25,519 nt of DNA from a virus (lineage: Duplodnaviria > Caudoviricetes), in IMG/VR virus record IMGVR_UViG_3300020045_001608, positions 1-25,519 of that record, one strand, 5' to 3'. Shown here one piece after another: positions 1,328 through 18,078 of this stretch (position 1 is the stretch's first letter; the number at the start of each line of letters is the position of its first letter). The position numbers and the translations under genes are program-made. The notes under the pieces were generated by a model that had not been told where the DNA came from, made no database searches, and saw only the letters and a list, made by a program, of their open reading frames with translations.

Positions 1328-2032
1328 ATGAGTAAAGATACTTTTTATTTTAGCCACGATTACAATGCGAGAAACGACATTAAAATTAAAAAGTTAATAG
1401 CAAAACATAATTATAATGGTTATGGTTTGTTTTGGGCAATAATTGAAGAATTATATAATAATGCCAACGCATTGCCTTTGGATTACGAATGTATTTCTTT
1501 TGACCTAAGAGTTGATGTTGAAATTTTAAAATCAATAATAAATGATTTTGATTTATTTATTGTTAATGATGGTTTTTTTGGAAGTTTATCAGTTCAAAGA
1601 AGATTAGAACAAAGAAACGAAAAGTCAACAAAAGCAAGGGAATCAGCAAATAAAAGATGGAATAAAGATGCGAACGCATTGCAAACGCAATCCGATAGCA
1701 ATGCTATAAAGGAAAGTAAAGTAAAAGAAAATAAAGAAAATGAAAATAAAGATATAACGGCTTTGCCTACTTTTAGTTTTTACCATTATTTAATTAACTT
1801 AGGTTGTAATAAACAATTAGTTTCTGATTGGATTAAGGTAAGAAAAAATAAAAGACTTACAAATACCGAAACTGCACTTAAAAAATTTATTACTCAGGTT
1901 GAAAAAAGCGGATATTCAATTGACGAAGTTTTAGAAAAATGTATTGAAAAAAGTTGGGGTGGATTTGAAAGTGATTGGTATTGTAAAGTAAAAAAACCTA
2001 TTGTTAAACCATTTTATGATAGTCCAGCGTAA
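1328..2032 (+). CDS. phage replication initiator (DUF4373 / Lin1244-like N-terminal domain)
   Basis: YFSHDYNARND...GYGLFWAIIEELY N-terminus, K-rich linker, C-terminal phage replisome-organiser-like segment (WIKVRKNK...IEKSWGGF); directly upstream of the helicase. Confidence 0.75.
   Translation: MSKDTFYFSHDYNARNDIKIKKLIAKHNYNGYGLFWAIIEELYNNANALPLDYECISFDLRVDVEILKSIINDFDLFIVNDGFFGSLSVQRRLEQRNEKSTKARESANKRWNKDANALQTQSDSNAIKESKVKENKENENKDITALPTFSFYHYLINLGCNKQLVSDWIKVRKNKRLTNTETALKKFITQVEKSGYSIDEVLEKCIEKSWGGFESDWYCKVKKPIVKPFYDSPA
1668..1711 (+). repeat. 11-nt-period degenerate direct repeats (candidate origin iterons)
   Basis: ATGCGAACGCA / TTGCAAACGCA / ATCCGATAGCA / ATGCTATAAAG inside the initiator gene, followed by a purine/A-rich tract. 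Confidence 0.5.
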
Positions 2033-3864
2033 TGAGTAATATACAAAATTGGGATTTAATCCAAACAAATAAAACAAGCGGAACTGCAAAAATAAAATGT
2101 CCTATTTGCACCGATACACGCAAAAACAAGTCAGATAATAGTTTGATGGTTTGGTTTAATAATGGTACTGCTAAATGCTTTAATCAAGGTTGTGAAGCGT
2201 TATTTTTTAAAGATAGTATTCAAAAATCGATAGTACAATCAAATTATACTTTGCCAAGTCAGGAATGGAAAAACTATACTAAGCTATCTGATGCACTTGT
2301 TAAACATTGCGAAAACGAAAGAAAGATTAATCAATATACGTTAAAGCATTTTGAAATTAGTGAAGAAAAATACTATCAACCATCATTAAACAAAGAAGTT
2401 AATAATATTGTATTTAACTATTTTGAGGGCGATGTATTAGTTAATAAAAAATATCGTTCAGGAAATAAAAAGTTCACTCAATCAAAAAATGGTAAACCAA
2501 TTTTCTATAACATCAATTCGATTATAGGCGAAGATGAGGTTTATATTGTCGAGGGCGAATTTGATGTATTAGCACTTTATGAAGTTGGAATAAAAAATGT
2601 AGTTTCAATTCCTAATGGTGCAAATGATAACGATAACTACTGGATTAATTCTGAAAAATATATAAAAGACGTTAAAAAGTTCTACATAGCAACCGATAAC
2701 GACGAAAGCGGAAACAATGTAGCTGAAAAAATAGCACAACGTTTAGGGCGTTATAGATGCGAAAGAGTTTTATTTAATGGTAAAGATGCAAACGACGACT
2801 TAAAAAGTGGAACTTTAAAAGAAAGCGTTTACAATAGAAAAAAATATCCAGTTTCAGGAGTTTTCACTACAGAAGACTTACTTGAAAAAATGGTTACTTT
2901 GTATGACAATGGATTACCAAATTGCATTGATATAAAAAATCGTGCTTTAAGTTGCTTAAATGATAAGTTCAAACTAATGTATGGTCATTTATGTATAGGC
3001 ACTGGAATACCATCACACGGAAAATCAAATTTTACAGAATGGTTGGTTTTAAATTACTTACTTGAAAACGATGTTAAAGCAAGTTTTTTCAGTCCTGAAC
3101 ACCAACCAATGGAATTACATATGTCAACTTTCGTTCAAAAAACAATTGGTAAAAACTATTTTTATGAAATAAAAGAAACACCAAAAGTTTCAAAGATGGA
3201 TATAATGCAGTTTCATAATTGGGCAAATCAAAAACTATACTTAACAAGTCCTGAGAATGGAGAGTTTGCAACTTGGGATTGGATTTTTGAAAAATTTAGA
3301 GAGCAAATTTATTCTTTTGGTATTAATATTTTTGTAGTTGATGCGTGGAATAAAGTAGAACATACTGGGACTAAAACTGAAAGAGAAAATATAGGGTTAA
3401 CACTTTCAAGATTAACACAATTCGCTCAACAAAATAACGTTTTGATAATAGTTATTGCGCACCCTACTAAAATGAAAAAAGAAAACGGAATATATGAACA
3501 ACCTACGTTGTACGATGTTTCAGGTAGTGCGGATTTCAGAAACCAAACACATGATGGATTTTGTATTTATAGATATTTTGGAGATGAAAGTTTTACTAAA
3601 TTTACAAACTTAAAAACTAAATATTCTTTTCAGGGCGAAATAGGAGCGAGTTTAGAATTTGATTATCATTTACCATCGGGGCGTTATTACGAAAGAGGTA
3701 CAGAACCGCAAACAGAAAACCTATTAGATAAGCTAATTAGTAAAGAACAAAAAGAAGATAATTTTTTACAAGAGTTAGTCCCATTACCTTTGATAAGTAA
3801 AGAAGAATTGAAAGGAGTTTTTGATGATATGCCATACGATGATGATGCACAGGTTCCATTTTAA
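2032..3864 (+). CDS. bifunctional DNA primase-helicase (T7 gp4/Twinkle-like; Zn finger + TOPRIM + SF4 helicase)
   Basis: CPIC...CFNQGC zinc-binding domain, TOPRIM motifs IVEGEFDVLAL and ATDNDESG, Walker A GIPSHGKS, Walker B FVVDAWN, VIAHP and YDVSGSADF DnaB-family motifs. Confidence 0.93.
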   Translation: MSNIQNWDLIQTNKTSGTAKIKCPICTDTRKNKSDNSLMVWFNNGTAKCFNQGCEALFFKDSIQKSIVQSNYTLPSQEWKNYTKLSDALVKHCENERKINQYTLKHFEISEEKYYQPSLNKEVNNIVFNYFEGDVLVNKKYRSGNKKFTQSKNGKPIFYNINSIIGEDEVYIVEGEFDVLALYEVGIKNVVSIPNGANDNDNYWINSEKYIKDVKKFYIATDNDESGNNVAEKIAQRLGRYRCERVLFNGKDANDDLKSGTLKESVYNRKKYPVSGVFTTEDLLEKMVTLYDNGLPNCIDIKNRALSCLNDKFKLMYGHLCIGTGIPSHGKSNFTEWLVLNYLLENDVKASFFSPEHQPMELHMSTFVQKTIGKNYFYEIKETPKVSKMDIMQFHNWANQKLYLTSPENGEFATWDWIFEKFREQIYSFGINIFVVDAWNKVEHTGTKTERENIGLTLSRLTQFAQQNNVLIIVIAHPTKMKKENGIYEQPTLYDVSGSADFRNQTHDGFCIYRYFGDESFTKFTNLKTKYSFQGEIGASLEFDYHLPSGRYYERGTEPQTENLLDKLISKEQKEDNFLQELVPLPLISKEELKGVFDDMPYDDDAQVPF

Positions 3865-4006: not shown

Positions 4007-4035
4007 AAATTATGAATTTAATAAAAATAAATTTG

Positions 4036-4043
4036 TATATTTG
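4036..4043 (+). promoter_or_regulatory. Bacteroidota -7 promoter element TATATTTG
   Basis: Matches TAnnTTTG in an intergenic gap (a second match, TAAATTTG, at 4028-4035); the -33 element is poor. Confidence 0.6.
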
Positions 4044-4047
4044 TTTA

Positions 4048-4126
4048 TCGGAGTGGACGCCGAATTAAAAACATTATAAAATTCCAACGCAGATAAAGAC
4101 GTCCACCTTTTGAAGCGTTGGTTTTT
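4048..4126 (+). ncRNA. candidate structured leader RNA: two hairpins with complementary loops (kissing loop) ending in a U-tract
   Basis: TCGG-[AGTGGACG]-CCGA (4048-4063); CCAACGC..AAAG-[ACGTCCAC]-CTTT..GCGTTGG (4084-4121) then TTTTT; GTGGACG is the exact reverse complement of CGTCCAC. Confidence 0.7.
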
Positions 4127-4132
4127 ACATTT

Positions 4133-4621
4133 ATGGAACAAGTAGAAATTTGGAAAGATATACCTAATCATGAAGGAACATATCAAGTTAGTAATTTAGG
4201 AAGAGTAAGGAGTTTAAAGTTTGGAAAAGAAAAAATAATGAAGCAAGTATTAGATAAAAAAAATTACTTTTTTCTTACTTTAATGGAAAATAAAAAAAAT
4301 AAAACTAAAAGAGTTCATAAACTTGTAGCTATGGCTTTTTTAAATCATATTCCTTCAAAAATGAATTATGTTGTTGACCACATAGATAACAATTCAAAAA
4401 ATAACAAATTAGATAATTTACAAATAGTAACAAATAGATATAATTGTCAAAAAGATAAAAAAGGATATAGTTCAAAATATATTGGTGTTTCTTGGTGTAA
4501 GCATTTTAAAAAATGGAACAGTAAAATTAGAATTGGAAATAAAAATAAAAATTTAGGTTATTTTAAAAATGAAGTTGAAGCAAGTATAGCTTATAAAAAT
4601 GCTTTAAAAGAAATATTATGA
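4133..4621 (+). CDS. NUMOD4-HNH homing-type endonuclease with C-terminal AP2-like DNA-binding domain
   Basis: EIWKDIPNHEGTYQVSNLGRVRS (NUMOD4); VHKLVAMAF...VDHIDNNSKNNKLDNL (HNH_3); SSKYIGVSW...W...LGYFKNEVEASIAY (AP2-like). ATG at 4133 preferred over the TTG at 4118, which lies inside the leader hairpin. Confidence 0.92.
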   Translation: MEQVEIWKDIPNHEGTYQVSNLGRVRSLKFGKEKIMKQVLDKKNYFFLTLMENKKNKTKRVHKLVAMAFLNHIPSKMNYVVDHIDNNSKNNKLDNLQIVTNRYNCQKDKKGYSSKYIGVSWCKHFKKWNSKIRIGNKNKNLGYFKNEVEASIAYKNALKEIL

Positions 4622-5031
4622 AGATCTTAGTAGTTAAAAACCACAGAGGACTTGTTCCAGTTTACGATAGCGATTATGAAAACTTCGCTAAAATTCCATT
4701 AAATGAGGAGTTTGAAATTGAGTACACAAAAAAGCGCAATTTAAAGTTTCATAAAAAATACTGGGCTTTATTAAAATTAGCTTTTGAAAATCAAAGCGAT
4801 TATAGAAGCATAAACGATATGCGCAGAGATATTGCAATAGTAAGCGGATTTTATGATGAGGTTGTAAATCTAATAACTGGTGAAATATTAAAAATTGCTA
4901 AATCAATTTCATTCGCAAAAATGGATGATACAGAATTTAGCGAACTTTACGAAAAAACAAAAGATACTATTTCTAAATGGTTGGGAATAGATAACGAAAC
5001 AATTGATAATGAGATACAACAATACTATTAA
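4618..5031 (+). CDS. DUF1367-like (Nin-region) phage protein
   Basis: RNLKFHKKYWALL and KSISFAKMDDTEFSELY motifs characteristic of the DUF1367 family; near NinG. Confidence 0.75.
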   Translation: MKILVVKNHRGLVPVYDSDYENFAKIPLNEEFEIEYTKKRNLKFHKKYWALLKLAFENQSDYRSINDMRRDIAIVSGFYDEVVNLITGEILKIAKSISFAKMDDTEFSELYEKTKDTISKWLGIDNETIDNEIQQYY

Positions 5032-8943: not shown

Positions 8944-10315
8944 TTATCAAAAGGTATTAAAAGTTAGATGTGAGAATGATTTATTATTTTTCACAAGGTA
9001 TATTTATAAAGAAAACACAAGGCGTAATTTTATAGTTGCGCCTCATTTTATTGAAATAGCTAATACTTTAACCGATGTAGTTAATGGTAAGATTAAGCGA
9101 TTAATTATAAACATTCCTCCACGTTATGGTAAAACTGAATTAGCGGTAAAATGTTTCATAGCTTGGTGTTTGGCTAAAAATTCAACATCAAAATTCATAC
9201 ACCTTTCTTATTCCGATTCATTAGCATTAGATAATTCAAGCCAAACAAAAGAGTATATTGAAAGCGATGCATTTCAGTCACTTTGGCAAATGAAATTAAA
9301 GAAAGATGCACAAAGTAAATCGAAGTGGTTTAATGACGATGGTGGTGGGGTTTACGCTACTGCTTCGGGTGGCGCTATTACTGGTTTTGGTGCTGGTGTA
9401 ACCGATAGCAATGAGTTTAGTGGTGCAATTATAATTGATGACCCTTTAAAACCTGACGACGCTTTTAGCGAGGTTAAAAGAAATGCAGTTAACGAAAGAT
9501 ATAATAATACAATTAGAAGCCGTGTAAACGACAGAGATACACCTATTATTGTTATTATGCAAAGATTACACGAAGACGATATGAGTGGATTTCTTTTAAA
9601 TGGCGGAAGTGGCGAGGAATGGACTCATTTATGTTTACCAGCGTTAAATGAATTAAACGAGCCTCTTTGGAGTGACAAACATTCATTTGAGGAACTTGAA
9701 CAAATAAGACAAGCTAATAGATATACTTTCGCTGGTCAATATATGCAAACACCATCTCCTGATGAGGGTGGCGAATGGCGTAAAAATTGGTTTAATATAG
9801 TTAAAAAACAAGAAGTCCCACAAGGTATTAATTGGGAATTGTTTATAGATGGTGCTTATACTAAAGATACAAAGAACGACCCAACAGGATTACAGATACA
9901 AGGTAGGTATAACAACGATGTTTATATATATTCAAGTATAGATAAGTATTTAGAAATGCCTGAACTATTAAAACTTATTCCTAACCATATACAACAAACA
10001 GGATTGGATATAAAAATGGTTTTAATCGAACCCAAAGCAAGTGGAAAATCATTAAAACAATTACTTCAAAACCAAACAAAGTTAAATGTTTCAGAGTTAA
10101 AAGGAGAAATGTTACAAATGTCAAAGATTGAAAGAGCAAGGTCGGTAAGTCCATTTATTGAGGGTGGTCGAGTCTTTTTAGTTGAGGGGAGTTGGAATGA
10201 ACACTACTTACAGCAAGTAAGTATATTCCCAAATGGTAAACACGATGAACATATAGATTTAACCGCTTATGGAATTAATCGAAATTTAATGAGAAAAATT
10301 AGTCAAGTATTATAA
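8918..10315 (+). CDS. terL: terminase large subunit
   Basis: Walker A INIPPRYGKT, Walker B IIIDDP, IMQRLHEDD coupling motif, nuclease motifs FIDGA, IEPKASG and FPNGKHDEHID. Confidence 0.95.
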   Translation: MTNLTNLTNYQKVLKVRCENDLLFFTRYIYKENTRRNFIVAPHFIEIANTLTDVVNGKIKRLIINIPPRYGKTELAVKCFIAWCLAKNSTSKFIHLSYSDSLALDNSSQTKEYIESDAFQSLWQMKLKKDAQSKSKWFNDDGGGVYATASGGAITGFGAGVTDSNEFSGAIIIDDPLKPDDAFSEVKRNAVNERYNNTIRSRVNDRDTPIIVIMQRLHEDDMSGFLLNGGSGEEWTHLCLPALNELNEPLWSDKHSFEELEQIRQANRYTFAGQYMQTPSPDEGGEWRKNWFNIVKKQEVPQGINWELFIDGAYTKDTKNDPTGLQIQGRYNNDVYIYSSIDKYLEMPELLKLIPNHIQQTGLDIKMVLIEPKASGKSLKQLLQNQTKLNVSELKGEMLQMSKIERARSVSPFIEGGRVFLVEGSWNEHYLQQVSIFPNGKHDEHIDLTAYGINRNLMRKISQVL

Positions 10316-17923: not shown

Positions 17924-17966
17924 TTATTTAGATTAATTAAAAATAAGTAATATATTTGTAGAATTA
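17924..17966 (+). promoter_or_regulatory. head-operon promoter (-7 TATATTTG) overlapped by a Fur-box-like palindrome
   Basis: TATATTTG 17951-17958; TTATTTAGATTAATTAAAAATAA 17924-17946 covers the expected -33 position. Confidence 0.6.
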
Positions 17967-17967
17967 A

Positions 17968-17987
17968 ATAGTGTGAAGACGCACTAT
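17968..17987 (+). promoter_or_regulatory. hairpin with GAAGAC hexaloop
   Basis: ATAGTGT-GAAGAC-GCACTAT, 7-bp stem closed by a U-G pair, at the 5' end of the predicted transcript. Confidence 0.65.
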
Positions 17988-18029
17988 ACTAATCAGAAAA
18001 TGAACGTGAAAACAACACAAGTACAAATC

Positions 18030-18066
18030 AAATCCTTTATCGATTAATTTCGGTTAAGGATTTTTT
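18030..18066 (+). terminator. intrinsic terminator/attenuator-like hairpin in the head-operon leader
   Basis: AAATCCTT.ATCGA-ttaatt-TCGGT.AAGGATTT with T-run 18061-18066, 12 nt before ATG 18079. Confidence 0.6.
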
Positions 18067-18078
18067 ACGTTAAAAAAA

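Follow-up and report, generated by a model that had tools for sequence, protein, structure and literature searches.

Short terminated leader RNAs precede several phage operons, some of them carrying replication genes, as in lambda pR′-6S-tR′, P4 CI, P1/P7 C4 and IsrK, and these lambda-, P4- and P1-type units either depend on the Q protein or have their targets at separate sites. A fixed partnership between a nuclease and a long RNA is characteristic of the IscB/omega (HEARO) systems, in which the nuclease carries RuvC and a bridge helix. The closest layout to the one described below is that of the guanidine-IV riboswitch (GGAM-1/mepA) and of Gd4v, which, according to the accessible text of the reports, comprise a pair of hairpins linked through a loop-loop pseudoknot, with the 3′ hairpin being the terminator (PMC7736828, PMC11611296, PMC9788692). 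In guanidine-IV, the kiss to the terminator loop is reported to promote read-through, and stretching of the linker has been proposed as the cause (PMC7736828, PMC11611296). Homing endonuclease genes of the T4 family (I-TevI/II/III, segB, mobE, segF, and seg43(25)) are kept at low expression by hairpins at the start codon and weak intrinsic terminators, which are presented in the accessible sections of that paper as gene-specific single hairpins hiding the Shine-Dalgarno sequence or as terminators within the gene, with no description there of loop-loop pairing (PMC2988022). Gene control in Bacteroidota phages has been little described.

We analyzed a Caudoviricetes record of 25,519 nucleotides (IMGVR_UViG_3300020045_001608, positions 1-25,519; hereafter the window), the gene content of which includes a replication initiator, a primase-helicase, NinB-like and NinG proteins, and morphogenesis-type genes. 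A two-hairpin leader, located between the promoter box at 4036-4043 and a free-standing endonuclease gene, appears to represent an uncatalogued phage RNA family, which may work like a kissing-loop terminator attenuator. The positions that the initial annotation had given for the promoter box, hairpins, start codon, and open reading frame all proved exact on recheck (Table 1).

Table 1. Features of the leader, the endonuclease cassette, and the flanking genes in the window.
Feature	Position	Strand	Remarks
Toprim primase-DnaB helicase gene (upstream context)	2032..3864	+	basis for the RNA-independent sample of relatives
8-bp direct repeat, left copy, cassette 5′ junction	4009..4016	+	start context of DUF1367 in relatives
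18-codon ORF from the orphaned start codon, through hairpin 1	4012..4068	+	read from sequence
-7-like box, second copy	4028-4035	+	
Bacteroidota sigma-A -7 box (TAnnTTTG), TATATTTG	4036..4043	+	predicted transcription start near 4048
Hairpin 1	4048..4063	+	4 bp; loop 4052-4059 (A+GTGGACG), kissing bases 4053-4059; -3.4 kcal/mol
A-rich linker, 20 nt	4064..4083	+	
Hairpin 2, terminator-like	4084..4121	+	7-bp base, 4x4 internal loop, 4-bp top stem
Hairpin 2 internal loop, tandem GA	4091-4094 / 4111-4114	+	
Hairpin 2 loop (A+CGTCCAC)	4099-4106	+	kissing bases 4100-4106
U tract, 5 U after hairpin 2	4122..4126	+	predicted termination site
Free-standing NUMOD4-HNH endonuclease gene, 162 aa	4133..4621	+	weak AP2-like C-terminus
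8-bp direct repeat, right copy	4615..4622	+	HNH stop overlaps the NinB-like start codon
DUF1367 / NinB-like recombination gene	4618..5031	+	cassette sits at its start

In Flavobacterium psychrophilum, the -7 box occupies positions -12 to -5, according to the consulted part of the report (PMC9723704), which places the predicted transcription start near the first base of hairpin 1 and gives an RNA of ~80 nt up to the U run. Hairpin 2 has a fold energy of -11.8 kcal/mol, with 5 G-C pairs in its 7-bp base, which ends 11 nt before the ATG at 4133; the GC-rich stem is followed directly by the U run, i.e., the layout of an intrinsic terminator, from which termination is predicted. Contigs of three metatranscriptomes did not cover the element, which has no bearing on its expression. 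A simple scan for terminators does not call hairpin 2, which is a long, interrupted hairpin, and this counts against the attenuator reading developed below. The -7 box is not enriched in the window (4 occurrences versus 3.2 expected from shuffles) and the nested folding signal of the window alone is weak (z = -0.94), so that the beyond-chance evidence for the leader is comparative. The 18-codon ORF running through hairpin 1 is likely a by-product of the cassette insertion.

The comparative evidence centers on the 7-nt loop-loop complementarity, which the initial annotation had proposed to form a kissing complex and had suggested checking by covariation; this check was run and the pairing is real, being maintained by compensatory changes. 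All 24 rows of the seed alignment pair at all 7 kissing positions, 4 of which show double changes. In a metagenomic set collected with a search pattern from which loop 2 was absent, 49 of the 49 complete distinct rows pair at all 7 positions (a 50th distinct row is without hairpin 2), with double changes numbering 29, 22, and 25 at the three pattern-free kissing positions, the other four being invariant partly because the search pattern constrained them. The stem pairs of hairpin 1 covary, and double changes are found at all 11 modelled pairs of hairpin 2. An exact-loop scan of IMG/VR yielded 119 loci, most of them chance matches, with 15 displaying the full layout and 3 a part of it. A pattern leaving both loops free gave 120 matches, including 14 flagged copies and new complementary loop pairs. 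A covariance model built from the 24 copies matched 53 times among 100 (of 121) metagenome loci and 52 times among 100 (of 122) viral loci, with 2 strong matches in 81 GTDB loci. Across all loci, 167 of the 170 matches of the profile search could be parsed and 156 had 7/7 kissing pairs; they collapse into 120 distinct cores, two of which are misparses, leaving 20 loop words. The spacing is also constrained: the distance from box to loop is 8-9 nt in 107 of the 120 copies and that from loop to loop is 36-47 nt in the core family (120 copies), and such tight loop-to-loop spacing favors cis pairing within one molecule. On average, ~6 of the 8 nt after the hairpin 2 stem are T across the 120 copies. 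A conserved -33 TTG was considered and rejected, a TTG at a spacing of 18-20 nt being present in 27 of 119 copies and not evident in the window. Scaling of linker length with hairpin length was considered and rejected, the only correlation being a negative one that stems from how the boundary is drawn. These alignments support the existence of a genuine family of covarying ~80-nt kissing-loop RNAs following a Bacteroidota promoter box.

The complementary words could in principle act in DNA, as inverted protein-binding half-sites or as hairpins of single-stranded DNA, given that, in duplex DNA, the loop words constitute an inverted repeat and that the neighboring genes act on DNA. Yet the words vary freely while staying complementary, a promoter box and a U tract go with the leader, and in 98 of 117 copies the fold of the + strand is better than that of its complement. 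Moreover, G-U pairs occur on the + strand, and the internal loop of hairpin 2 recurs as tandem GA in 71/117 copies and as AGUA/GAA, presumably a bulged-G motif, in 15/117. The strand bias, G-U pairs, and recurring internal loops together point to an RNA on the + strand, and we consider a DNA-level role highly improbable.

To assess the distribution of the design irrespective of its sequence, we relied on a sequence-free finder requiring a promoter box, a small hairpin, a terminator-like hairpin, and at least 6 complementary loop bases, which control chimeras with unmatched loops passed in 27 of 506 trials. In 34 records chosen for carrying the core type, it recovered 66 elements, i.e., 1-5 per record, the leader thus recurring up to five times per genome. 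Among 80 loci picked by primase homology alone, the finder fired in 49, one of which was dropped as an in-gene match (48/80), compared to a single match on the opposite strands of the same loci; in 45 of the 80, the design lies upstream of the primase, heading the replication operon. Among related phages sampled without bias, more than half accordingly have it at the head of this operon. The 48 distinct elements of this sample contain 39 kissing words, 6-10 bp in length. In one subtype, the terminator hairpin is short and the linker spans 32-45 nt, with an extra hairpin in the linker of some copies (G014:10071, G013:31352, G031:35355, and G039:28577). In a further copy, G014:14922, the closing pair of hairpin 1 is broken and no ATG is found at the usual place, possibly reflecting decay. 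Other structured leaders, with long-range complementary ends, precede the initiator at L830:1186-1270, L844:1787-1860, and L777:1673-1790; in these phages, the initiator leader occupies the same place and the kissing-loop type is absent.

The leader is always located upstream of a gene, and many unrelated gene classes follow it. We classified the proteins encoded behind 120 leader copies by clustering and Pfam into 55 endonucleases (NUMOD4-HNH, GIY-YIG, HNH, and T5orf172), 40 replication proteins (DUF6291 and Lin1244-type initiators, Prim-Pol, BT4734-like primases, and helicases), and 25 others; methylases are also found behind the leader. Control specific to HNH nucleases, as initially envisaged, does not agree with this distribution, in which 65 of the 120 copies precede genes not classed as endonucleases, although two of these 65, from the “other” group, are HNH proteins by PHROGs. 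Among cultured Flavobacterium phages, 34 records (25 from GenBank and 9 RefSeq duplicates) match the window element, and all have it in front of an annotated endonuclease, so the leader is present in cultured phage-host pairs; the carriers are described as lytic only in the part of the source consulted (PMC7077304). Host chromosomes yielded few copies: 2 of 81 GTDB pattern matches were true copies, 1 of 151 Flavobacteriaceae genomes had a match, with 27 candidates scored per genome, and the two GTDB/host contigs of which the genes were inspected were phage-like. The cultured phage hattifnatt9-1 (L691, MN812207.1) carries three leaders with three loop codes, at 9358, 13299, and 14334, the first before a helicase, the second before an HNH gene, and the third before a small ORF and an initiator. 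The annotated start of its helicase, 9441, falls inside the leader, and the ATG at 9478 seems the more likely start.

The endonuclease in the window matches NUMOD4 (E = 1e-16) and HNH_3 (E = 9e-9) above the Pfam cut-offs, whereas the AP2 match is weak and below the cut-off (E = 0.002); accordingly, the first two parts of the NUMOD4-HNH-AP2 architecture assigned at the outset stand, and the third does not reach the cut-off. Its N-terminal 108 residues (NUMOD4-HNH) align with the solved HNH homing endonuclease 1u3e_M (E = 5e-16), which we take to be I-HmuI. The protein has this N-terminus in common with the I-HmuI type (PDB 1u3e) but is free-standing and possesses an AP2-like C-terminus. Both its NUMOD4 and HNH domains and its optional presence between conserved genes are those of a free-standing HNH homing endonuclease. 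In the window, the cassette comes after the NinB-like start context, and a second copy of the context is found at the HNH stop; the 8-bp repeat is common in the genome, with 11 copies on the + strand, and hence marks a start-codon context rather than a unique target. Of 12 NinB-like (DUF1367) relatives, 11 have upstream DNA, and the leader and HNH gene are present there only in L753, whereas L755 and L757 are empty: their upstream sequence, the same as in the window, continues directly into the DUF1367 start. Comparison of these loci indicates that, in the window, the leader and HNH gene are an optional insertion located at the start codon of the NinB-like gene.

The cassettes at related loci show how loosely the RNA and the nuclease are coupled. 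In L753, the 5′ junction and the RNA are the same as in the window letter for letter, whereas the HNH protein is 42% identical, so that HNH proteins with only 42% in common follow a near-identical element of 99 nt; in L037 and L451, the RNA has one extra base and is followed by a third HNH, and the 5′ junction of the window is absent. Five other HNH relatives (44-57%, from the pattern search) are without the leader. Thus, the leader and nuclease arrived together, with no co-evolution, and the earlier claim that the RNA travels with the gene is supported for entry into this locus. The same observations speak against the suggestion that the RNA is a partner of the HNH protein. A partner, guide, or antitoxin RNA would be in keeping with joint entry into the locus, but the leader also precedes GIY-YIG endonucleases, initiators, helicases, and methylases, and no variable guide segment lies upstream of the protein, which is of homing-endonuclease type; we regard such a role as most unlikely. 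In line with the original description of the nuclease as not IscB-like, the features of IscB/omega (HEARO) systems were not found: a 162-aa NUMOD4-HNH protein is combined with an RNA uncoupled from it. The leader may, in addition, provide a homology arm by which nuclease genes are exchanged. One HNH relative without the element, L121, shows another structured leader at 2380-2480, the ends of which are complementary and which includes a T run.

The family could not be assigned to any catalogued RNA. The initial annotation had not recognized a named Rfam family, and none was recovered: covariance models of Rfam 15 gave no match to the window at gathering score or with a significant E-value (best local E 0.46 or worse) and 0 matches in 16 homologous loci, and no description of the leader was found in openly accessible literature searched by title and abstract start. 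An unnamed listing among the 8,496 DNA-virus candidates of a study consulted in part (PMC10690425) is possible. Unlike in the lambda pR′-6S-tR′, P4 CI, P1/P7 C4, and IsrK units, both complementary loops of the leader reside in one 80-nt RNA, and separate target sites of the C4 or CI type were not found, each 7-mer occurring once in the incomplete 25.5-kb contig. As in guanidine-IV and Gd4v, insofar as the accessible text describes them, there is no overlapping antiterminator strand and the RNA is in cis to diverse genes, and covariation confirms that the loop of the 5′ hairpin pairs with that of the predicted terminator hairpin. The riboswitches, however, have highly conserved ligand-binding loop nucleotides in those descriptions, whereas the leader has dozens of interchangeable perfect Watson-Crick codes, and hairpin 1 of the leader, unlike that of guanidine-IV, begins at the predicted +1. 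The 39 kissing words among 48 elements speak against conserved ligand-pocket loops. Furthermore, guanidine-IV and Gd4v are described upstream of sugE, MATE, GNAT, or transaminase genes in bacteria, whereas the leader precedes phage nuclease and replication genes, and none of the former were found among the 120 downstream proteins scanned. A guanidine-IV-like riboswitch, with a ligand stabilizing the kiss, is suggested by the same layout and by a few near-invariant loop positions in the core family. These positions are largely fixed by the search patterns, the loops differ across subtypes in length (6-10 bp kiss) and sequence, and the downstream genes belong to DNA metabolism rather than transport or metabolic pathways; hence, we consider this possibility very unlikely.

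Based on these comparisons, we tentatively propose, with a probability of about 0.45, that the leader acts as a transcription attenuator without a ligand: its 5′ loop would kiss the loop of the predicted terminator and thereby set the fraction of read-through. Host RNA polymerase would start at ~4048, making hairpin 1 the 5′ end of the transcript, and the hairpin 1 loop would capture 4100-4106 on their exit from the polymerase, while the 7-bp base of hairpin 2 is still open. The kissed form would then slow or strain this closure, as proposed for the guanidine-IV riboswitch, and partial termination would produce an ~80-nt RNA and a dosed amount of the long transcript. As a duplex, the kiss is worth -10.5 kcal/mol, compared to -3.4 for hairpin 1 and +0.6 for the top stem of hairpin 2, and in stepwise folding it is the best available pairing while the polymerase is at 4119-4131. 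A rough polymer estimate of linker strain amounts to 0.9-2.3 kcal/mol with the full terminator versus 0.2-0.5 before its formation, which is too small to exclude a hairpin of -11.8 kcal/mol; thus, the kiss and full terminator probably coexist, and any effect of the kiss must be kinetic, with a sign that the sequence does not fix. Several observations count against attenuation: extension of the kiss, expected of a strand-exchange antiterminator, is not enriched over permuted flanks, and some copies before initiators have 3 nt between the stem and the U run.

The same attenuator may have been native to the phage replication operon and subsequently acquired by homing-endonuclease cassettes, in which hairpin 2, ~10 nt from a start codon in poor context, would also lower translation. 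The distance from hairpin to ATG is 9.7 nt ahead of endonucleases versus 18.0 nt ahead of replication genes. Of the 55 endonuclease copies, 41 have T at position -3, whereas A occupies it in 22 of the 40 replication copies; such gene-class comparisons, however, overstate significance because the copies are related. An A at -3 favors translation in Bacteroidetes, as stated in the part of the report available (PMC7366714), and the short ATG distance and mostly missing A at -3 of the endonuclease copies are in line with the damping described, in the sections consulted, for T4-type genes (PMC2988022). Attenuation combined with damping of nuclease translation is plausible. Two further comparisons, subject to the same relatedness of copies, weigh against the attenuator: the U tract is equally long across gene classes, and hairpin 2 is weaker before endonucleases (-12.6 versus -16.1 kcal/mol).

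The differences in ATG distance and -3 base, together with the position of hairpin 1 at the predicted +1, would also suit a purely post-transcriptional role, whereby a compact 5′ structure shields the end of the mRNA and restricts the loading of ribosomes, with the U run belonging simply to the A/U-rich initiation region; endonuclease genes of the T4 family are reported to have hairpins close to their starts in the text available to us (PMC2988022). Nevertheless, all gene classes keep a GC-rich stem base with ~6 T in the 8 nt that follow, even where the ATG is 30-60 nt away, and we deem this explanation improbable.

If the kiss and the full hairpin coexist, the opposite effect also has to be weighed, namely, that the kiss nucleates the top stem, reinforces the terminator and locks the ~80-nt RNA, with read-through depending on a phage factor or a changed polymerase, in the manner of promoter-proximal terminators that antitermination releases. 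The top stem alone is unstable (+0.6 kcal/mol), the kiss and full hairpin look geometrically compatible, and perfect Watson-Crick kisses generally form without helpers, according to the portion of the source consulted (PMC10907184). A candidate factor would be a small protein with a weakly Pur-alpha-like structural model (Foldseek E 0.04 and TM ~0.5 versus Borrelia Pur-alpha), which is often the first gene behind the leader. This protein of 60-90 aa, with four strands and a helix, takes that position in 22 of 45 replication operons (e.g., L384:471-698, L798:1639-1848, and 22 more in alignment A9); the structure atlas gave no named family for it. It was rejected as an obligatory factor, being absent from the window and found in only 4 of the 32 element-bearing records (28/32 without it), and no common factor was found in these records. 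Considering that the sole tested precedent with the same layout is an ON switch, we regard reinforcement of the terminator as unlikely, if still a reading to be reckoned with.

Another possibility is that the short terminated RNA acts in trans on nascent leaders with the same code, counting phage genomes or co-infecting kin, in the manner of the P4 CI or P1 C4 RNAs. The 39 kissing words among 48 elements, the three codes on the three copies of hattifnatt9-1, and the fact that only 1 of 51 within-genome pairs is able to cross-pair would be expected in that case; this last number is, however, not below chance (3.0 expected, P = 0.17; 1/7 versus 1.1 in the core family), and selection for orthogonal loops within a genome was rejected as not significant. 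In addition, G029 has two copies sharing one code, no second target for either loop was found in the window, the tight loop spacing suits cis pairing, the carriers are lytic only in the accessible description (PMC7077304), and 150 of 151 Flavobacteriaceae genomes lack a match at 27 candidates scored per genome. Action in trans is, on balance, doubtful. The same low standing applies to a broader, speculative scheme, in which terminated 80-nt RNAs would block the cis kiss of nascent leaders of the same code, operons would dose themselves by counting their own RNA as a measure of phage genome number or co-infecting kin, and one subtype would be co-opted by homing endonucleases as a front end that is portable and exchangeable and keeps expression low. 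Within this scheme, with hairpin 1 at +1, a kissed ring might even allow the terminator to close only on transcripts from its own promoter while passing those initiated upstream.

Should the cis-acting attenuator be confirmed, a kissing-loop/terminator mechanism tested so far only in a metabolite riboswitch would extend to a ligand-free phage setting, and the cassette would illustrate how selfish endonuclease genes can arrive with a ready-made promoter and damper. The availability of dozens of natural loop codes makes the effect of loop-loop pairing on intrinsic termination directly testable.

The initiator operon of the window itself is without a kissing-loop leader, which many relatives have at this place; instead, the initiator-primase operon is headed by a long palindrome followed by a 49-aa HTH ORF (1143-1292) within the region 1087-1292. 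The ORF matches HTH_37 below the cut-off (E = 3e-4), and a close homologue is present in 4 of the 80 primase loci, 3 without and 1 with the leader, numbers too small to conclude that an HTH repressor is a mutually exclusive stand-in for the leader, and this idea was not retained. Farther downstream, at 17951-18072, prohead protease and capsid-type genes are preceded by a -7 box and two hairpins, the second of which is terminator-like and has a U run. The loop of this first hairpin has no complement elsewhere in the window, and the region is possibly a promoter-proximal terminator of the late operon.
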